IMG/VR virus record: IMGVR_UViG_2545824709_000009
DNA from: a virus
Taxonomy: Duplodnaviria > Heunggongvirae > Uroviricota > Caudoviricetes
DNA: 14,941 nucleotides
Strand: one strand, 5' to 3'
Positions within the stretch are counted from its first letter, which is position 1. Each line of letters begins with the position of its first letter. Positions 4,268 to 11,660 of the stretch are shown piece by piece. The notes beneath the pieces were generated by a model. That model made no database searches, was not told where the DNA came from, and was given only the letters and a program-made list of their open reading frames with translations. Position numbers and translations under genes: made by a program.

Positions 4268-4579
4268 TCATCGTTCCTTAAAGACGCCGTTTAACATGCC
4301 GATTGCCAGGCTTAAATGAGTCGGTGTGAATCCCATCAGCGTTACCGTTTCGCGGTGCTTCTTCAGTACGCTACGGCAAATGTCATCGACGTTTTTATCC
4401 GGAAACTGCTGTCTGGCTTTTTTGATTTCAGAATTAGCCTGACGGGCAATGCTGCGAAGGGCGTTTTCCTGCTGAGGTGTCATTGAACAAGTCCCATGTC
4501 GGCAAGCATAAGCACACAGAATATGAAGCCCGCTGCCAGAAAAATGCATTCCGTGGTTGTCATACCTGGTCTCTCTCAT
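4268..4579 (-). CDS. Hypothetical early-left protein (lambda orf61-like region, 103 codons here)
   Basis: Minus-strand ORF co-directional with exo and overlapping the stop of the upstream orf63-like ORF. The 5' part aligns positionally with lambda orf61, but the ORF runs longer than 61 codons; the true start could be internal (MTPQQENAL...). Confidence 0.55.
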   Translation of the reverse strand: MRETRYDNHGMHFSGSGLHILCAYACRHGTCSMTPQQENALRSIARQANSEIKKARQQFPDKNVDDICRSVLKKHRETVTLMGFTPTHLSLAIGMLNGVFKER

Positions 4580-4751: not shown

Positions 4752-4906
4752 ACAGCTCCCCGTTTATTATTTATCTCCTCAGCCAGCCGCTGTGCTTTCA
4801 GGGGATTTCGGATAACAGAAAGGCCGGGAAATACCCAGCCTCGCTTCGTAACGGAGTAGACGAAAGTGATCGTGCCTACGCGGATATTATCGTGAGGATG
4901 TTTCAT
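4724..4906 (-). CDS. Hypothetical protein, lambda orf60a-like
   Basis: 60-aa ORF ([10 protein letters not shown]...) whose start overlaps the exo stop. The six-frame track begins two codons upstream (MAM, at 4912); the ATG at 4906 gives the lambda-like length. Confidence 0.7.
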
Positions 4907-5583
4907 CGCCATTGCTCCCCAAATACAAAACCAATTTCAGCCAGTGCCTCGTCCATTTTTTCGATGAACTCCGGCACCATCTCGTCAAAACTCGCCATGT
5001 AATTTTCATCCCGCTCAACCACGACATAATGCAGGCCTTCACGCTTCATTCGTGGGTCATAGTTGGCAAAGTACCAGGCATCTTTTCGCGTCACCCACAT
5101 GCTGTACTGCACCTGGGCCATGTAAGCTGACTTTATGGCCTCGAAACCACCGAGCCGGAATTTCATGAAATCCCGGGAGGTAAACGGGCATTTCAGTTCA
5201 AGGCCGTTGCCGTCACTGCATAAACCATCGGGAGAGCAGGCGGTGCGCATACTTTCGTCGCGATAGATGATCGGGGATTCAGTAACATTCACGCCGGAAG
5301 TAAACTCAAACAGGGCTCTGGCGTCGTTCTCGTACTGTTTTCCCCAGGCCAGCGCCTTAGCATTAACTTCCGGAGCCACACCGGTGCAAACCTCAGCCAG
5401 CAGGGTGTGGAAGTAGGACATTTTCATGTCAGGCCACTTCTTTCCTGAGCGGGGCTTTGCTATCACGTTGTGAACTTCTGAAGCGGTGATGACGCCGAGC
5501 CGTAATTTGTGCCATGCATCATCCCCCTGTTCGACAGCTCTCACGTCGATCCCGGTACGCTGCAGGATAATGTCCGGTGTCAT
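4903..5583 (-). CDS. exo: Lambda exonuclease (Red-alpha, YqaJ-type 5'-3' exonuclease)
   Basis: 226-aa [43 protein letters not shown]...FGEQWR, recognised as near-identical to lambda Exo; overlaps the bet stop. Confidence 0.97.
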
Positions 5584-6365
5584 GCTGCCACCTTCTGCTC
5601 AGTGGCTTTCTGTTTCAGGAATCCAAGAGCTTTCACTGCTTCGGCCTGTGTCAGTTCTGACGATGCGCGAATGTCGCGGCGAAATATCTGGGAACAGAGC
5701 GGCAATAAGTCGTCATCCCATGTTTTATCCAGGGCGATCAGCAGAGTGTTAATCTCCTGCATGGTTTCATCGTTAACCGGAGTGATGTCGCGTTCCGGCT
5801 GACGTTCTGCAGTGTATGCAGTATTTTCGACAATGCGCTCGGCTTCATCCTTGTCATAGATACCAGCAAATCCGAAGGCCAGACGGGCACACTGAATCAT
5901 GGCTTTATGCCGTAACATCCGTTTGGGATGCGACTGCCACGGCCCCGTAATTTCTCTGCCTTCGCGAGTTTTGAATGGTTCGCGGCGGCATTCATCCATC
6001 CATTCGGTAACGCAGATCGGATGATTACGGTCCTTGCGGTAAATCCGGCATGTACAGGATTCATTGTCCTGCTCAAAGTCCATGCCATCAAACTGCTGGT
6101 TTTCATTGATGATGCGGGACCAGCCATCAACGCCCACCACCGGAACGATGCCGTTCTGCTTATCAGGGAAGGCGTAAATTTCTTTCGTCCACGGATTAAG
6201 GCCGTACTGGTTGGCGACGATCAACAATGCGATGAACTGCGCATCGCTGGCATCACCTTTAAATGCCGTCTGGCGAAGAGTGGTGATCAGTTCCTGTGGG
6301 TCGACAGAATCCATGCCGACACGTTCAGCCAGCTTCCCTGCCAGCGTTGCGAGTGCTGTACTCAT
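5580..6365 (-). CDS. bet: Bet (Red-beta single-strand annealing protein, RecT-like)
   Basis: 261-aa [62 protein letters not shown]..., recognised as lambda Bet. Confidence 0.97.
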
Positions 6366-6370
6366 CCGTT

Positions 6371-6667
6371 TTATACCTCTGAATCAATATCAACCTGGTG
6401 GCGGGCAATAGTTTCAACCATGTACCGTATGTGTTCTGCCATGCGTTCCTGAAACTCAACATCGTCATCAAACGCACGGGTAATGGCTTTTTTGCTGGCC
6501 CCGTGGCGTTGCAAATGATCGATGCATAGCGATTCAAACAGGTGCTGGGGCAGGCCTTTTTCCATGTCGTCTGCCAGTTCTGCCTCTTTCTCTTCACGGG
6601 CGATCTGCTGGTAGTGACGCGCCCAGCTCTGAGCCTCAAGACGATCCTGAATGTAATAAGCGTTCAT
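6371..6667 (-). CDS. gam: Gam (RecBCD inhibitor), short form
   Basis: 98-aa [63 protein letters not shown]..., recognised as lambda GamS with a CAGGAG RBS. The upstream in-frame sequence resembles the N-terminal extension of long Gam only loosely. Confidence 0.95.
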
Positions 6668-6743
6668 GGCTGAACTCCTGAAAATGGCTGTGAAAATATC
6701 GCCCGCGAAATGCCAGGCTGATTAGGAAAACAGGAAAGGGGGG

Positions 6744-7034
6744 TTAGTGATTCAGGCCGTTACCGCGTCCGTCGAGAAAAACTTCCACGAGCAAATCACG
6801 GGTATAAGTGCGCTCGATGCCGCGATGCAGATAAAGCCGTCCGCGTAAATTAGCTGATGCAGTCCAGGTACCATCTTTGTGTTTGACCAGCATTCCTGGC
6901 ATGACCGCACCTCGATTAACGGTCTGCGTTCCGTAATGTTGATGAACCATAAAAACTCCTGCCCGTAAGCTGGGCTGCTGAACATATAAAGACTTCTGCG
7001 CGTATTCAGGCGGTGGATGGCCGCCGGTTGTCAT
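6744..7034 (-). CDS. Hypothetical early-left protein at the kil/cIII position (first ORF downstream of pL)
   Basis: 96-codon ORF from the track. An internal ATG at 6950 (MVHQHYGTQTVNRG...) is preceded by a strong AGGAG RBS and may be the real start, giving 68 aa. Its stop sits where lambda kil ends. No family recognised, and no arginine-rich motif of N type. Confidence 0.5.
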   Translation of the reverse strand: MTTGGHPPPEYAQKSLYVQQPSLRAGVFMVHQHYGTQTVNRGAVMPGMLVKHKDGTWTASANLRGRLYLHRGIERTYTRDLLVEVFLDGRGNGLNH

Positions 7035-7204
7035 AACTAAGCCGCCTCGTTGAAGCGACTAAGGTATGAAATGTTGAGTTAATTTCAGCTGGTCACACCG
7101 ACGTTCACGCGTCCGTTTCACCCCTCGCACTCCCCGAAGCCTGCTGAAATTCAAACTGCGGATCTAAGCGGTCATCGCAACGGTGAATCAGGTAGTTGCC
7201 GTAT

Positions 7205-7290
7205 CGTTGTGTTGTTGCGATGAACTTATTTAAAACTATAGTTGTTTTATCGTCAACAACAAAAGTTGTTTTATTGGTTGTTTTAGATAT
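7205..7290 (-). promoter_or_regulatory. Putative OL operators and pL promoter
   Basis: Palindrome GTTGTTttatcgtcAACAAC (7241-7260) overlapping a -35 TTGACG (minus strand, 7251-7256), with a TTTTAAAT -10-like element about 16-17 bp downstream (7228-7235). Further GTTGTTTTA half-sites at 7265 and 7277. The module is nearly a copy of the OR/pR module at 8277-8312. Confidence 0.5.
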
Positions 7291-7396
7291 AACTGGTTGT
7301 ATTTAGGATGGATTTATTTTGTGACTTGAATCGCATAGCGATAACTGAAGCGAGGTTATGGTGGTTTTTTTAACGGTGTGTGTGATGAGGGGAGGG

Positions 7397-7424
7397 CAAA
7401 AGAAAACCCGGCACGGTGACCGGG
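7397..7424 (-). terminator. Putative intrinsic terminator downstream of cI
   Basis: Minus-strand reading gives CCCGG-tcaccgtg-CCGGG followed by TTTTCTTTTG, about 120 nt past the cI stop. Confidence 0.5.
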
Positions 7425-7545
7425 ATTCTTACGCCGTTAGGTAAAGATATTATTGCGGTGGCTTAATATTACTACCTAGAGCAAAGATAGGAATTAGTTC
7501 TTTACTGAATGAGCACAATGCCCAGTTGATAATTTTTAATTGGTA

Positions 7546-8235
7546 CTACCCATGCTTCCTATATGTCTGCGGCATGCTCCCAATAACCTTACCGAAGATG
7601 AACACCCGGTTCATCTCGTCTTTCTCGATCGGGTCCCACGGTGAGTAGCTTTTGTTATCAGAGATGACCAGCAGCTTATTCTTCATCATTTGCAGGCGCT
7701 TTACATGGGCTGTGTCGTCGTACAGAAACGCATAGATACCATCACCGTCGAAAGATTTAACTGTGATATCAACGAACAGCAGATCACCTGGTTCGATCGT
7801 TCCTGACATGCTGTCACCACGCACGTTAATGATGCGGATATTTTCCGCCTTCCTACCATCGAACATGTGACGAGCATCGTCAAACGAGTACTCAACCGAG
7901 CGTAGAACTTCTACAAACTCACGGTTGATGACTCCCGGCCCAGCACTGACTTCTATATCAAGAACGTCAATCTTGAAGTATTTGGAATGGCTGACAGTTG
8001 ATTGTATTGGTTGCACTGTACTGTCTGACATATTTCCAACGCCAGAAGATAACCATTCTGCGCGCACACCCAAAGCGTTCGCGATCTCCACGATTTTAGT
8101 TGTTTGATTAGCTTTCCCTGTTTCGATTTTCTGAATAGCAGCCTGGCTAACCCCGACCAAATCCCCAAGCGCCTTTTGTGTAAGGCCTCGCGCTAATCTG
8201 GCTTCTTTAAGTCTTTCTGAGAGTGTTGTTTTCAT
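7546..8235 (-). CDS. cI: Prophage repressor CI (N-terminal HTH, C-terminal S24 LexA-like autopeptidase domain)
   Basis: ORF with start chosen at MKTTLSERLKEARLARGLTQKALGDLVGVSQAAIQKIETGK (HTH, XRE-type); C-terminal domain carries the GDSM serine motif and a downstream Lys (AHVKRL). The track's upstream extension (to 8301) runs through the operator region and is unlikely. Divergent from cro across an operator region. Confidence 0.9.
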   Translation of the reverse strand: MKTTLSERLKEARLARGLTQKALGDLVGVSQAAIQKIETGKANQTTKIVEIANALGVRAEWLSSGVGNMSDSTVQPIQSTVSHSKYFKIDVLDIEVSAGPGVINREFVEVLRSVEYSFDDARHMFDGRKAENIRIINVRGDSMSGTIEPGDLLFVDITVKSFDGDGIYAFLYDDTAHVKRLQMMKNKLLVISDNKSYSPWDPIEKDEMNRVFIFGKVIGSMPQTYRKHG

Positions 8236-8339
8236 AGTCCAAATGTACAACCAAGGTTTTATTCCATCAAACGAAAATGGTTGTTGACTAAAAACAACCA
8301 TAGTTTTAATCTTGATTCAAATTAACCACGGAGGTTGTT
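8236..8339. promoter_or_regulatory. OR operator region with divergent pRM/pR promoters
   Basis: 25-bp palindrome ATGGTTGTTgactaaaAACAACCAT (8277-8301) containing -35 TTGACT (8284-8289), with a TTTTAAT-like -10 about 16 bp downstream. Extra half-sites ACAACC (about 8243) and GGTTGTT (8333-8339). Lies between divergent cI and cro. Confidence 0.6.
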
Positions 8340-8570
8340 ATGAACCCAGCTATCAAAACAGCGATCAATATCGTTGGTTCACAAAAGAAACTGGGCGCTG
8401 CTTGCGAAGTTTCACAGCAGGCCGTCTATAAGTGGCTTCACAACAAAGCAAAGGTATCCCCTGAACATGTCGGCAGCATTGTTACGGCTACTGGTGGAGT
8501 AGTGAAGGCATACCAGATTCGCCCGGATCTTCCGAAGTTGTTTCCACACACCGAAAAGAACGCAGCTTAA
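8340..8570 (+). CDS. cro: Cro-like HTH regulator
   Basis: 76-aa ORF directly right of OR and divergent from cI; small HTH-like protein (…QKKLGAACEVSQQAVYKWLHNK…). Confidence 0.8.
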   Translation: MNPAIKTAINIVGSQKKLGAACEVSQQAVYKWLHNKAKVSPEHVGSIVTATGGVVKAYQIRPDLPKLFPHTEKNAA

Positions 8571-8582
8571 ATTTCCATTTCA

Positions 8583-8595
8583 CGCTCTTTAACAA
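8583..8595 (+). promoter_or_regulatory. boxA-like element (nutR-type) in the pR transcript
   Basis: CGCTCTTTAACAA, a 12/13 match to the boxA consensus as I recall it (TGCTCTTTAACAA), 13 nt after the cro stop. No convincing boxB hairpin follows. Confidence 0.45.
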
Positions 8596-8639
8596 TAAGC
8601 AATCAACTTAACAGTCAATTCAAACTAAAGGAGTCAATT

Positions 8640-9179
8640 ATGCAACCACTTACATACCAACAGACTAGCGGATTTAGCCCGACTGCGGTGATAAATCGTT
8701 CTCAAACAAAACAGGTGCCAGGCCACGAAAAAATCCGTGATGCCGTCCGCGCCTGGTCGGCTGTAGATAATCAGGATGTCGTTGCCACACTCATTGTGAA
8801 TGAGTATCGGGAGCAGGGCGGCGGCACCATCGATTTCCCTGATGATGTCAGCCGTGCACGCCAGAAGCTGTTCCGCTTCCTCGATAACAAATTCGATTCT
8901 GAAAAATACCGAAATAATGTGCGTGAACTGACCCCGGCAATTCTGGCGGTACTACCGCTGGAATATCGCGGTTACCTGGTTGAGCAGGATAGCTTCATGG
9001 CTAGGTTGGCTGAAATGGAAAAGGAACTCAGTGAGGCAAAACAGGCTGTCATTCTCAACGCACCACGCCACCAGAAACTGAAGGAAATTAGTGAAGGTAT
9101 TGTGTCGATGTTTCGTGTGGACCCAGATCTGGCTGGTCCATTGATGGCGATGGTTACTACCATGCTGGGGGCGATATGA
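8640..9179 (+). CDS. CII-position regulatory protein, probably YdaT family (the CII analogue of Rac-type immunity regions)
   Basis: 179-aa ORF with a good RBS (aaggag) between cro and O. Motifs NEYREQGGGTIDFPDD and LTPAILAVLPLEYRGYL resemble my recollection of YdaT-like proteins. Not similar to lambda CII. Confidence 0.6.
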   Translation: MQPLTYQQTSGFSPTAVINRSQTKQVPGHEKIRDAVRAWSAVDNQDVVATLIVNEYREQGGGTIDFPDDVSRARQKLFRFLDNKFDSEKYRNNVRELTPAILAVLPLEYRGYLVEQDSFMARLAEMEKELSEAKQAVILNAPRHQKLKEISEGIVSMFRVDPDLAGPLMAMVTTMLGAI

Positions 9180-9265
9180 CAGGTTCAGAAATGGCGAAAG
9201 CCGGTCTGCTGGAACAGAACCGACTTTCAGGTGCAAATCGTAACACACTCATTGCGGGAGGAATT

Positions 9266-10195
9266 ATGGCAAACACTGCTGAGATATTCAATTTTCCAGT
9301 GCCGGATGCGGCACAAAAGGAGCCGCGCGTGGCAGATCTCGATGATGGTTATACGCGCATTGCAAATGAGTTGCTGGAAGCTGTGATGCTGGCCGGATTA
9401 ACACAGCACCAGCTTCTGGTCTTCCTGGCTGTCATGCGCAAAACATATGGCTTTAATAAAAAACTGGATTGGGTGAGCAACGAGCAACTTTCCGAGTTGA
9501 CCGGGATATTGCCGCACAAGTGTTCTGCTGCAAAAAGTGTTCTGGTAAAGCGTGGGATTTTTATTCAGAGTGGGCGGAATATCGGCATTAATAATGTGGT
9601 CAGTGAATGGTCAACATTACCCGAATCAGGTAAGAAAAATAAAGTTTACCTGAAAGAGGTAAATTTACCTGAATCAGGTAAGAAAAGTTTACCCAAATCA
9701 GGTAAAGGCGTTTACCCGAATCAGGTAAACACAAAAGACAAACTAACAAAAGACAATATAAAACCTTTTTCGTCCGAGAATTCTGGCGAATCCTCTGACC
9801 AGCCAGAAAACGACTTTCCTTTGGAGAAACTGGATGCTGCAATTCAGAGCGGCAGCAAGTGGGGGACAGCAGAAGACCTGACCGCCGCAGAGTGGATGTT
9901 TAACATGGTGAAGACCATCGCGCCCTCAGCCAGAAAACCGAATTTTGCAGGGTGGGCTAACGATATCCGCCTGATGCGTGAACGTGACGGACGTAACCAC
10001 CGCGACATGTGCGTGCTGTTCCGCTGGGCATGCCAGGACAACTTCTGGTCCGGTAACGTGCTGAGTCCGGCCAAACTCCGCGACAAGTGGACCCAACTCG
10101 AAATCAACCGTAACAAGCAACAGGCTGGCGTGACAACCGGAAAATCAAAACTCGACCTGACAAACACTGACTGGATTTACGGGGTGGATTTATGA
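9266..10195 (+). CDS. O: Replication initiator O (lambda O type, with divergent N-terminal iteron-binding domain)
   Basis: Start chosen at the ATG after GGAGG (MANTAEIFNFPVPD...), aligning with the lambda O N-terminus; the track's longer ORF starts at 9176. The C-terminal half (from ...SSENSGESSDQPENDFPLEKLDAAIQSG...) is recognised as near-identical to lambda O. Contains the iterons. Confidence 0.9.
   Translation: MANTAEIFNFPVPDAAQKEPRVADLDDGYTRIANELLEAVMLAGLTQHQLLVFLAVMRKTYGFNKKLDWVSNEQLSELTGILPHKCSAAKSVLVKRGIFIQSGRNIGINNVVSEWSTLPESGKKNKVYLKEVNLPESGKKSLPKSGKGVYPNQVNTKDKLTKDNIKPFSSENSGESSDQPENDFPLEKLDAAIQSGSKWGTAEDLTAAEWMFNMVKTIAPSARKPNFAGWANDIRLMRERDGRNHRDMCVLFRWACQDNFWSGNVLSPAKLRDKWTQLEINRNKQQAGVTTGKSKLDLTNTDWIYGVDL
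9617..9770. repeat. ori: Replication origin: five ~19-bp palindromic iterons plus AT-rich region inside O
   Basis: TTACCCGAATCAGGTAA (9617), TTACCTGAAAGAGGTAA (9646, variant), TTACCTGAATCAGGTAA (9665), TTACCCAAATCAGGTAA (9689), TTACCCGAATCAGGTAA (9713), followed by acaaaagacaaactaacaaaagacaatataaaacc. Same architecture as lambda ori but different iteron sequence. Confidence 0.8.
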
Positions 10196-11592: not shown

Positions 11593-11624
11593 AAATAATT
11601 TGTTTTTAAACGACTAAAATATGG

Positions 11625-11660
11625 AGGCTCGTATATTTATATGGGCCTCGTTTTATGCTT
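11625..11660 (+). terminator. Putative intrinsic terminator after emrE
   Basis: GAGGCTC ... GGGCCTC stem (one G-U pair, large loop) followed by GTTTTATGCTTTTT. Confidence 0.35.

Follow-up and report, generated by a model that had tools for sequence, protein, structure and literature searches.

Gene content and organization of the immunity region

The window, by which we mean the entire stretch of 14,941 nucleotides that was analysed, comes from a lambda-like prophage that lies beside ybhC, at the lambda attachment site. Over positions 6700-9300 it is 99.8% identical to PhiR34_1, the host of which is given in the GenBank record as E. coli K-12 MG1655, and over the same interval many E. coli chromosomal prophages are 100% identical to it. 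The gene order starts with int and xis, followed by a leftward block that comprises exo, bet, gam and a kil-like gene (Table 1). The operator words of pR recur at pL. On the rightward side, the first gene 3' of the element described here encodes a YdaT-domain protein, and YdaT is a functional equivalent of CII (PMC9986795). This gene is followed by O, P and ren, and then by an emrE moron and ybcK. Repeated words of the type TTTACCTGATT within O (9618-9731) look like replication-origin iterons. An Rfam match to rliD at the same position is weak, is caused by these repeats, and was dismissed as meaningless.

The element lies between cro and ydaT, on the strand of both genes and 3' of the putative pR. 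The gene order implies that it is transcribed from pR and, given the putative position of that promoter, it would lie ~270 nt into the transcript.

Table 1. Coordinates of features in the window and, in the last three lines, in related prophage loci (locus names precede the coordinates).
Feature	Coordinates	Strand	Remarks
exo	4903-5583	leftward	
bet	5580-6365	leftward	
gam	6371-6667	leftward	
kil-like gene	6744-6950	leftward	
pL leader, ~200 nt	7035..7235	-	structured, non-coding; in place of N and nutL
pL	about 7255-7225	-	
Terminator-like hairpin	7424-7407	-	directly downstream of cI
cI	7546-8235	leftward	
Putative pR promoter	8284..8318	+	TTGACT at 8284-8289, inside operator palindrome; inferred from sequence
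cro analogue, 76 aa	8340..8570	+	Pfam YdaS_toxin and P22_Cro; PHROG transcriptional repressor
Untranslated cro-ydaT spacer, 69 nt	8571..8639	+	on the pR transcript; from fold and composition
BoxA RNA element CGCUCUUUAACAA	8583..8595	+	core GCUCUUUAACA, 8584-8594, fits GYTCTTTAANA
Deletion scar	8608..8616	+	holds one copy (TTAACAG, 8608-8614) of a 7-nt direct repeat
19-nt unit GTCAATTCAAACTAAAGGA plus partial repeat GTCAATT	8614..8639	+	includes ydaT Shine-Dalgarno AAGGAG
CII analogue (YdaT domain), 179 aa	8640..9179	+	Pfam YdaT_toxin 8.5e-30; PHROG CII-like activator 3.9e-67
Intrinsic-terminator-like hairpin, 11 pairs then GTTTTATGCT	11624-11649	+	after emrE moron, between pR and Q
Hairpin across cro stop codon	L005 6243-6262; L006 3565-3583; L007 4076-4093; L008 3736-3754		GCCGCC-UAAnn-GGCGGC
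Composite boxA-hairpin element, examples	L223 5921-5967; L168, L120, L260-L306, L377-L382		
phi80-type pL-leader boxA	L377 about 4290-4302 (-); L006 1067-1079 (phi80); L288, L293		

A consensus BoxA between cro and the CII analogue

The letters at 8583-8595 (+) are exactly CGCTCTTTAACAA, as reported in the original prediction, which was made from the sequence alone and also proposed that the site occupies the place of nutR. Both statements hold. The element starts 13 nt past the cro stop codon and ends 44 nt ahead of the ydaT ATG (8640); in position and orientation it corresponds to nutR. The core, GCTCTTTAACA (8584-8594), has no mismatch to GYTCTTTAANA, the BoxA consensus published for gamma-proteobacteria on the basis of rrn and suhB (PMC5725501). 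The window contains no other match to this consensus, and the only match to YGCTCTTTAACAA without mismatches is again at 8583-8595. Dinucleotide shuffles of the whole window, scored on both strands, gave a mean of 0.10 consensus matches, with one or more matches in 20 of 200 shuffles; a chance match confined to the sense strand of the 69-nt cro-ydaT gap is far less likely than this figure. In the whole genome of PhiR34_1 (44.6 kb), the BoxA after cro is the sole perfect match to the consensus. A chance match is ruled out by the uniqueness of the site in the window and in PhiR34_1, together with the shuffle counts.

The window BoxA is identical at 12 of 13 nucleotides to the rrn boxA, UGCUCUUUAACAA. 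The Kd of NusB:NusE is 5-8 nM for the rrnG BoxA and 80-90 nM for the lambda nut BoxA (PMC2800207). Judged by its sequence, the window BoxA is of the high-affinity rrn type rather than the weak lambda type.

Structure and composition of the cro-ydaT spacer

The surroundings of the BoxA are unstructured (folding of 8560-8660 gives -5 kcal/mol, z = +0.14), as is the stretch from boxA to the ATG (z = -0.26). The lack of a boxB hairpin, remarked on in the original prediction, is therefore borne out by folding, and we ruled out a hidden boxB in the window. Given the rrn-type sequence, for which the Kd is tight (PMC2800207), and the unpaired RNA, binding of NusB/S10 is predicted, and the BoxA is almost certainly able to bind this pair.

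The spacer is C-rich and G-poor (15 C vs 6 G), with a C/G ratio of 2.3-2.7 that ranks in the top 0.2-1.4% among the 78-nt windows of the analysed stretch. It has the character of a rut site (an unstructured, C-rich, G-poor, untranslated region of ~70-80 nt), a permissive criterion from which termination does not follow. The lambda terminator tR1 occupies the equivalent position. Thus, a target for an anti-Rho device is available in the spacer.

The same composition allows an explanation that does not involve Nus factors, in which the motif serves for Rho loading, as a component of a tR1-like site, or, at the level of DNA, belongs to a YdaT operator or PRE-like leftward promoter region, as in the ydaS-ydaT interval of CP-933P. 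The gap is at the position of tR1, and the CP-933P YdaT footprint, ~95 bp long, covers the end of ydaS and the ydaS-ydaT gap, where the protein recognises TTGATTN6AATCAA (PMC9986795). Near the window BoxA there is a single AATCAA half-site, 5 nt 3' of boxA, but no full inverted repeat, the partner position reading TTAACA (3/6 match). No promoter-like site was found on the minus strand of the cro-ydaT region. Moreover, rut function needs C-richness, not an exact 12-nt BoxA match that is kept across divergent spacers, and the tetraloop bias of the hairpin that accompanies boxA in relatives (see below) indicates an element that acts as RNA, not DNA. We consider this explanation very improbable.

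The 3' part of the spacer consists of the 19-nt unit GTCAATTCAAACTAAAGGA and a partial repeat. One to three tandem copies of the unit occur among E. coli genomes (three in locus L215, 3570-3634; one extra in H71), and the extra copies duplicate the Shine-Dalgarno sequence. Consequently, the distance from boxA to the ATG varies, from 44 nt in the window to as much as 82 nt where there are three copies.

The GCUCUUU of the BoxA (8584-8590) is able to pair with the ydaT Shine-Dalgarno region AAGGAGU (8628-8634) through 7 pairs, 2 of them G-U. This pairing is weak in the window (-3.6 kcal/mol, z = -0.26), and the minimum-energy folds of three relatives show pairing of the same kind. Such pairing may be trivial, as expected with any pyrimidine-rich motif.

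A BoxA so close to a start codon brings to mind suhB. As in the suhB 5'UTR (Baniulyte et al., 2017; PMC5725501), the window has a consensus BoxA fewer than 50 nt upstream of an mRNA start codon, and it qualifies under the exact criteria of the genome screen in that study. The suhB BoxA, which lies within 50 nt of the start codon, represses translation of the gene and causes Rho termination (PMC5725501, PMC12360218). By the same geometry, NusB/S10 (with SuhB) bound at the window boxA could repress translation of the CII analogue and expose the operon to Rho, for which the rut-like gap would be suited and to which the boxA-Shine-Dalgarno pairing, with its equivalent in the folds of three relatives, might contribute. 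If so, the lysis-lysogeny decision and the dosage of O and P would be tied to the free Nus pool, i.e., to the growth state of the host. The suhB BoxA (GTTCTTTAACA) represses its own gene, whereas the gene downstream of the window BoxA is a CII analogue at the head of a replication operon, and what a phage would gain by throttling O and P is not obvious. The pairing is weak and is to be expected of any pyrimidine-rich motif. In addition, boxA lies well past 50 nt from the start in the wider family described below, and within the window lineage the distance varies with the repeats. Repression of this kind is, in our view, quite unlikely. Baniulyte et al. list a few prophage cI/cII BoxA matches, and the E. 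coli rows in one part of Supplementary Data 1 have no entry at a spacing of ~45 nt (PMC5725501).

Distribution of the spacer in E. coli prophages

Of 5426 complete E. coli genomes, 1514 (~28%) carry the boxA-bearing spacer, always between a window-type cro and a YdaT-domain gene; its identity is at least 99% in 1442 of these carriers. All 75 related IMG/VR loci (29 sequence variants) keep boxA. No purifying selection on boxA could be detected among them: there are no changes in boxA and almost none elsewhere. Since the whole region is nearly invariant within the lineage, the intact boxA there carries no statistical weight.

Among loci with a YdaT that is at least 98% identical, 71 carry the window-type cro and boxA and 12 carry a 4A7-type cro. 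The 4A7-type loci have a gap of 30 nt and a hairpin over the cro stop codon, and lack boxA. Homology between the two groups restarts exactly at the ydaT ATG, which by sequence places the boxA spacer in the cro (immunity) module. The 4A7-type phages, which exist as isolated phages, share the YdaT-O-P-ren operon and the pL leader with the window lineage. Thus, boxA is not indispensable to the downstream operon.

In many related cro genes (examples are found in 4A7, phi80, HK639 and a Klebsiella phage), the stop codon is spanned by a GC-rich hairpin of the form GCCGCC-UAAnn-GGCGGC. This hairpin has been lost in the window cro (GCAGCTTAA).

A composite boxA-hairpin element in related prophages

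Scans of one genome per species and of IMG/VR identified a two-part element in at least 55 prophage loci. Made up of CGCTCTTTAACAA, a spacer of 19-21 nt and a hairpin with a stem of 6-7 bp (GGCUGA-N4-UCAGCC), it is located between many different cro genes and genes of YdaT type or lambda-CII type. Across four divergent cro-ydaT spacers, the 12 nt of boxA are the sole invariant intergenic block. When 28 loci were retrieved by the spacer and hairpin alone, with boxA left unspecified, a consensus boxA was present in 27. The only recurrent boxA change in these loci is a C-to-T substitution at the tolerated Y position, resulting in the suhB form GTTCTTTAACA (five loci); one metagenomic contig has a G-to-T change. 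The hairpin loops vary freely, yet GNRA or UNCG sequences account for 6 of the 12 loop types (P about 8e-6). This bias suggests an RNA hairpin selected for stability, rather than a loop read by N or a DNA operator, and the loop enrichment and the fixed boxA-hairpin spacing together indicate a composite element at the RNA level. The boxA of this family lies well beyond 50 nt from the start codon. A second copy of the hairpin was not found on the pL side. One representative element had a match in 1 of 5426 E. coli genomes, and a search of INPHARED (50,697 phage records) with two representative elements returned no boxA-hairpin match, one of them matching at the ydaT end only.

The retention of boxA at the nutR position across divergent immunity regions of prophages with no recognisable N favours function over chance, and argues that, as far as sequence can tell, an N-independent element at the nutR/putR position has boxA as its functional core. 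Conservation of the match in related immunity regions, on which the original prediction was made to depend, is thus seen in several divergent ones with no recognisable N and is missing from the 4A7-type cro loci.

Loss of the hairpin in the window lineage

A minor variant of the window spacer (loci L147 and L211-L214) has 12 extra nucleotides, reading TTAACAG-ACTGA-TTAACAG-TC, that create a 5-bp hairpin, GACUG-AUUAA-CAGUC, 19 nt past the boxA core. Its post-boxA sequence was compared with three members of the composite family, and the scores obtained were reached by 0/2000, 2/2000 and 1/2000 shuffles. The second stem pair has changed from G-C to A-U, a compensatory change. In E. coli, 47 of the 1514 carriers match the spacer at 80-90% identity, a band that contains the 12-nt-longer form and some repeat-number variants; the remaining carriers lack the insert, so the form without the hairpin is the commoner one.

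The window form has the sequence expected of a deletion between the two 7-nt repeats that removed the 5' arm of the hairpin, with CAGTC (8612-8616) as the orphan 3' arm. Set against the composite element, its boxA and spacer are homologous and its hairpin 5' arm is deleted. By sequence, the window element is a truncated derivative of the boxA-hairpin composite. The original prediction had described a boxA standing on its own; by origin it is not free-standing, and we interpret it as the remnant of a composite that lost its hairpin through the 12-nt deletion.

The loss of the hairpin here, despite the constraint seen elsewhere, could mean that the element is decaying. Accordingly, boxA might be no more than a leftover of a boxA-hairpin (or nutR-like) ancestor, without a significant role, its intact sequence reflecting only the youth and clonality of the lineage. 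The deletion fits this idea, as do the near invariance of the cI-cro-ydaT region in the 75 loci, which makes an unmutated boxA uninformative, the existence of sister phages that have the same operon without boxA, and the drift of the distance between boxA and the ribosome binding site with the copy number of the 19-nt repeat. On the other hand, a perfect rrn-type BoxA in unstructured RNA should bind NusB/S10 regardless of its history (PMC2800207, PMC5725501), the hairpin-less form prevails among the E. coli carriers, and boxA is the most constrained part of the element in the wider family. We therefore regard a purely vestigial boxA as rather unlikely.

The left operon lacks N, nutL and put

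Lacking is a credible ORF in the ~200 nt interval between pL and kil. When lambda N, P22 gp24, phi80 'N' and HK022 Nun were used as tblastn queries against the window and the full phage genome, the best E was 0.5, and no N is listed in the RefSeq and GenBank annotations. These three results uphold the statement in the original prediction that N is absent. An arginine-rich ORF of 31 codons (RLRGVRGVKRTRERR) at 7154-7059 (-), just after pL, was rejected as a gene, having a TTG start and no Shine-Dalgarno sequence. In relatives its frame is shifted by indels of 5 nt and 1 nt, and in most of them a sense codon stands in place of its stop. It is unlikely to be a gene.

The pL leader (7035-7240, minus strand) contains no boxA-like sequence and, as the full phage genome has a single boxA, there is no nutL. 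Sites of the HK022/HK639 put type were sought with an nhmmer profile built from HK022 putL, HK022 putR and HK639 putL. In the window and in L090 the E values were 7.8 or worse, while the profile controls score 1e-14 to 1e-21 and the put sites of UPF_BP1, which are outside the profile, score 3e-18 and 8e-14. With these positive controls working, put was ruled out in either operon. Rfam searches of the window and of the MDK9L1 relative gave no relevant match, and there was no match in the pL leader.

The leader itself has three predicted hairpins (z = -2.0) and is conserved across two immunity types, with a 33-nt core, CGGACGCGTGAACGTCGGTGTGACCAGCTGAAA, unchanged throughout 37 sequence variants. 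The leader may be a further cis-acting RNA. By eye, the segment GAAACGGACGCG...CGUCGGUG of the leader resembles put stem I.

Relatives that bear the composite element have pL leaders of the phi80 type, in which a boxA is situated ~35 nt past the -10. This boxA reads TGCTTTTTAACAA in phi80 and in most of the relatives; others have the perfect rrn-type TGCTCTTTAACAA. Next come a leader of about 400-500 nt and a variable first gene. The check for a matching boxA in the pL leader, suggested with the original prediction, thus turns out negative for this phage and positive for relatives with phi80-type leaders. The phi80 gene annotated 'N' matches only a PHROG of unknown function, and none of ten early-left ORFs from composite loci matched an N-like PHROG. 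A prophage of E. coli MDK9L1 has a perfect boxA ~35 nt past the pL -10, and GTTCTTTAACA with a hairpin after cro; its RefSeq annotation includes no N. Five composite loci carry an HK639-type put (putL) on the left. In contrast, an N-like ORF (phrog_271, 1.3e-5) is present in a Leclercia locus where boxA is accompanied by different hairpins, which indicates that classical nut sites occur beside YdaT genes too.

Comparison with known antitermination systems

The element resembles the BoxA of the rrn Nus complex (NusB, NusE, NusG, NusA and SuhB) in that its core fits the rrn/suhB consensus, and in being single-stranded, in a ribosome-free stretch of a long operon and without an evident phage protein partner. 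Unlike the rrn BoxA, which is in a promoter-proximal rRNA leader, it lies within an mRNA operon after a translated gene, with neither a boxC nor an adjacent hairpin in the window, and both binding and antitermination are proposed by analogy with rrn.

With lambda nutR the element shares position, strand and the boxA-first order, to which relatives add a hairpin ~20 nt downstream. It differs in that there is no N and no nutL, and no hairpin in the window. The boxB loop is read specifically by its cognate N. In contrast, the 4-nt loop on the 6-7 bp stem of the relatives is highly variable, unlike an N-specific boxB loop. Put sites are likewise cis-acting RNA elements at the putR position of N-less lambdoid phages, and they are reported to act directly on RNA polymerase without Nus factors. 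There is no sequence similarity between put and the window element, which by its sequence is of the canonical NusB/S10 site type.

We found no description of boxA without N in lambdoid prophages in the literature searched. The boxA-hairpin element of prophages without a recognisable N is previously undescribed.

A proposed Nus complex without N

We conclude that the 13-mer is most likely a genuine BoxA, a NusB/S10 site that, from its sequence, would act without N as in rrn or suhB. We propose that it descends from the two-part element, comprising boxA, 19-21 nt and a stable tetraloop hairpin, which is located at the nutR/putR position of many lambdoid prophages of Enterobacteriaceae with no recognisable N, and that a very successful E. 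coli lineage lost the hairpin and retained boxA alone. On emerging from the polymerase, the boxA RNA, which belongs to the untranslated cro-ydaT gap of the pR transcript, would be bound by the host NusB-NusE (S10) heterodimer. Together with NusG, NusA and SuhB, this would form an rrn-like complex looped to the polymerase, without phage N, that could protect the C-rich gap and the delayed-early operon (ydaT, O, P, ren and the nin region) from Rho.

By analogy with rrn, shielding of the ribosome-free gap and the downstream operon from Rho by such a complex is the most economical mechanism, and we assign it a probability of about 0.4. We infer Nus factor binding, as well as the sign and size of any effect on transcription. 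Confidence is held at this level by the documented suhB-like opposite outcome, by the viable sister phages without boxA and by the loss of the hairpin here. We also count against it the absence of boxA from the pL leader and the presence of an intrinsic-terminator-like site between pR and Q, which a phage without N must read through, or else restart transcription downstream. Complexes of the rrn type act mainly on Rho-dependent terminators. The sign of any BoxA effect is uncertain because some BoxA sites, those of suhB and hisG among them, promote Rho termination (PMC5725501, PMC12360218).

Early antitermination in lambdoid phages is taught as either N with nut (lambda, P22, 21) or the RNA-only put of HK022. 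Here, an inducible prophage has neither and nevertheless carries a host BoxA at the nutR/putR position. The question is directly testable, since PhiR34_1 grows on E. coli K-12, mutations of boxA with known effects are at hand, and natural variants exist with the hairpin, without the hairpin and without boxA. If inert, the element is a clear example of a bipartite RNA signal that decays after its context has changed. If functional, it would add a widespread natural mRNA to the very short list of BoxA targets outside rRNA (suhB and a few predictions), and it represents a third solution, in which the rRNA Nus complex is used without a phage adaptor. More broadly, there may be a large undescribed class of N-less lambdoid phages that run early transcription on rRNA-type antitermination by the host, with no phage factor. 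Such phages would have a consensus BoxA after cro, in most cases with a tetraloop hairpin 19-21 nt further on, and those related to phi80 would have a second BoxA ~35 nt after pL, with boxA alone being enough in the window lineage. We consider this wider reading speculative and on balance unlikely. If true, the early expression of these phages would be coupled directly to the free Nus pool, and thus to ribosome synthesis and growth rate.
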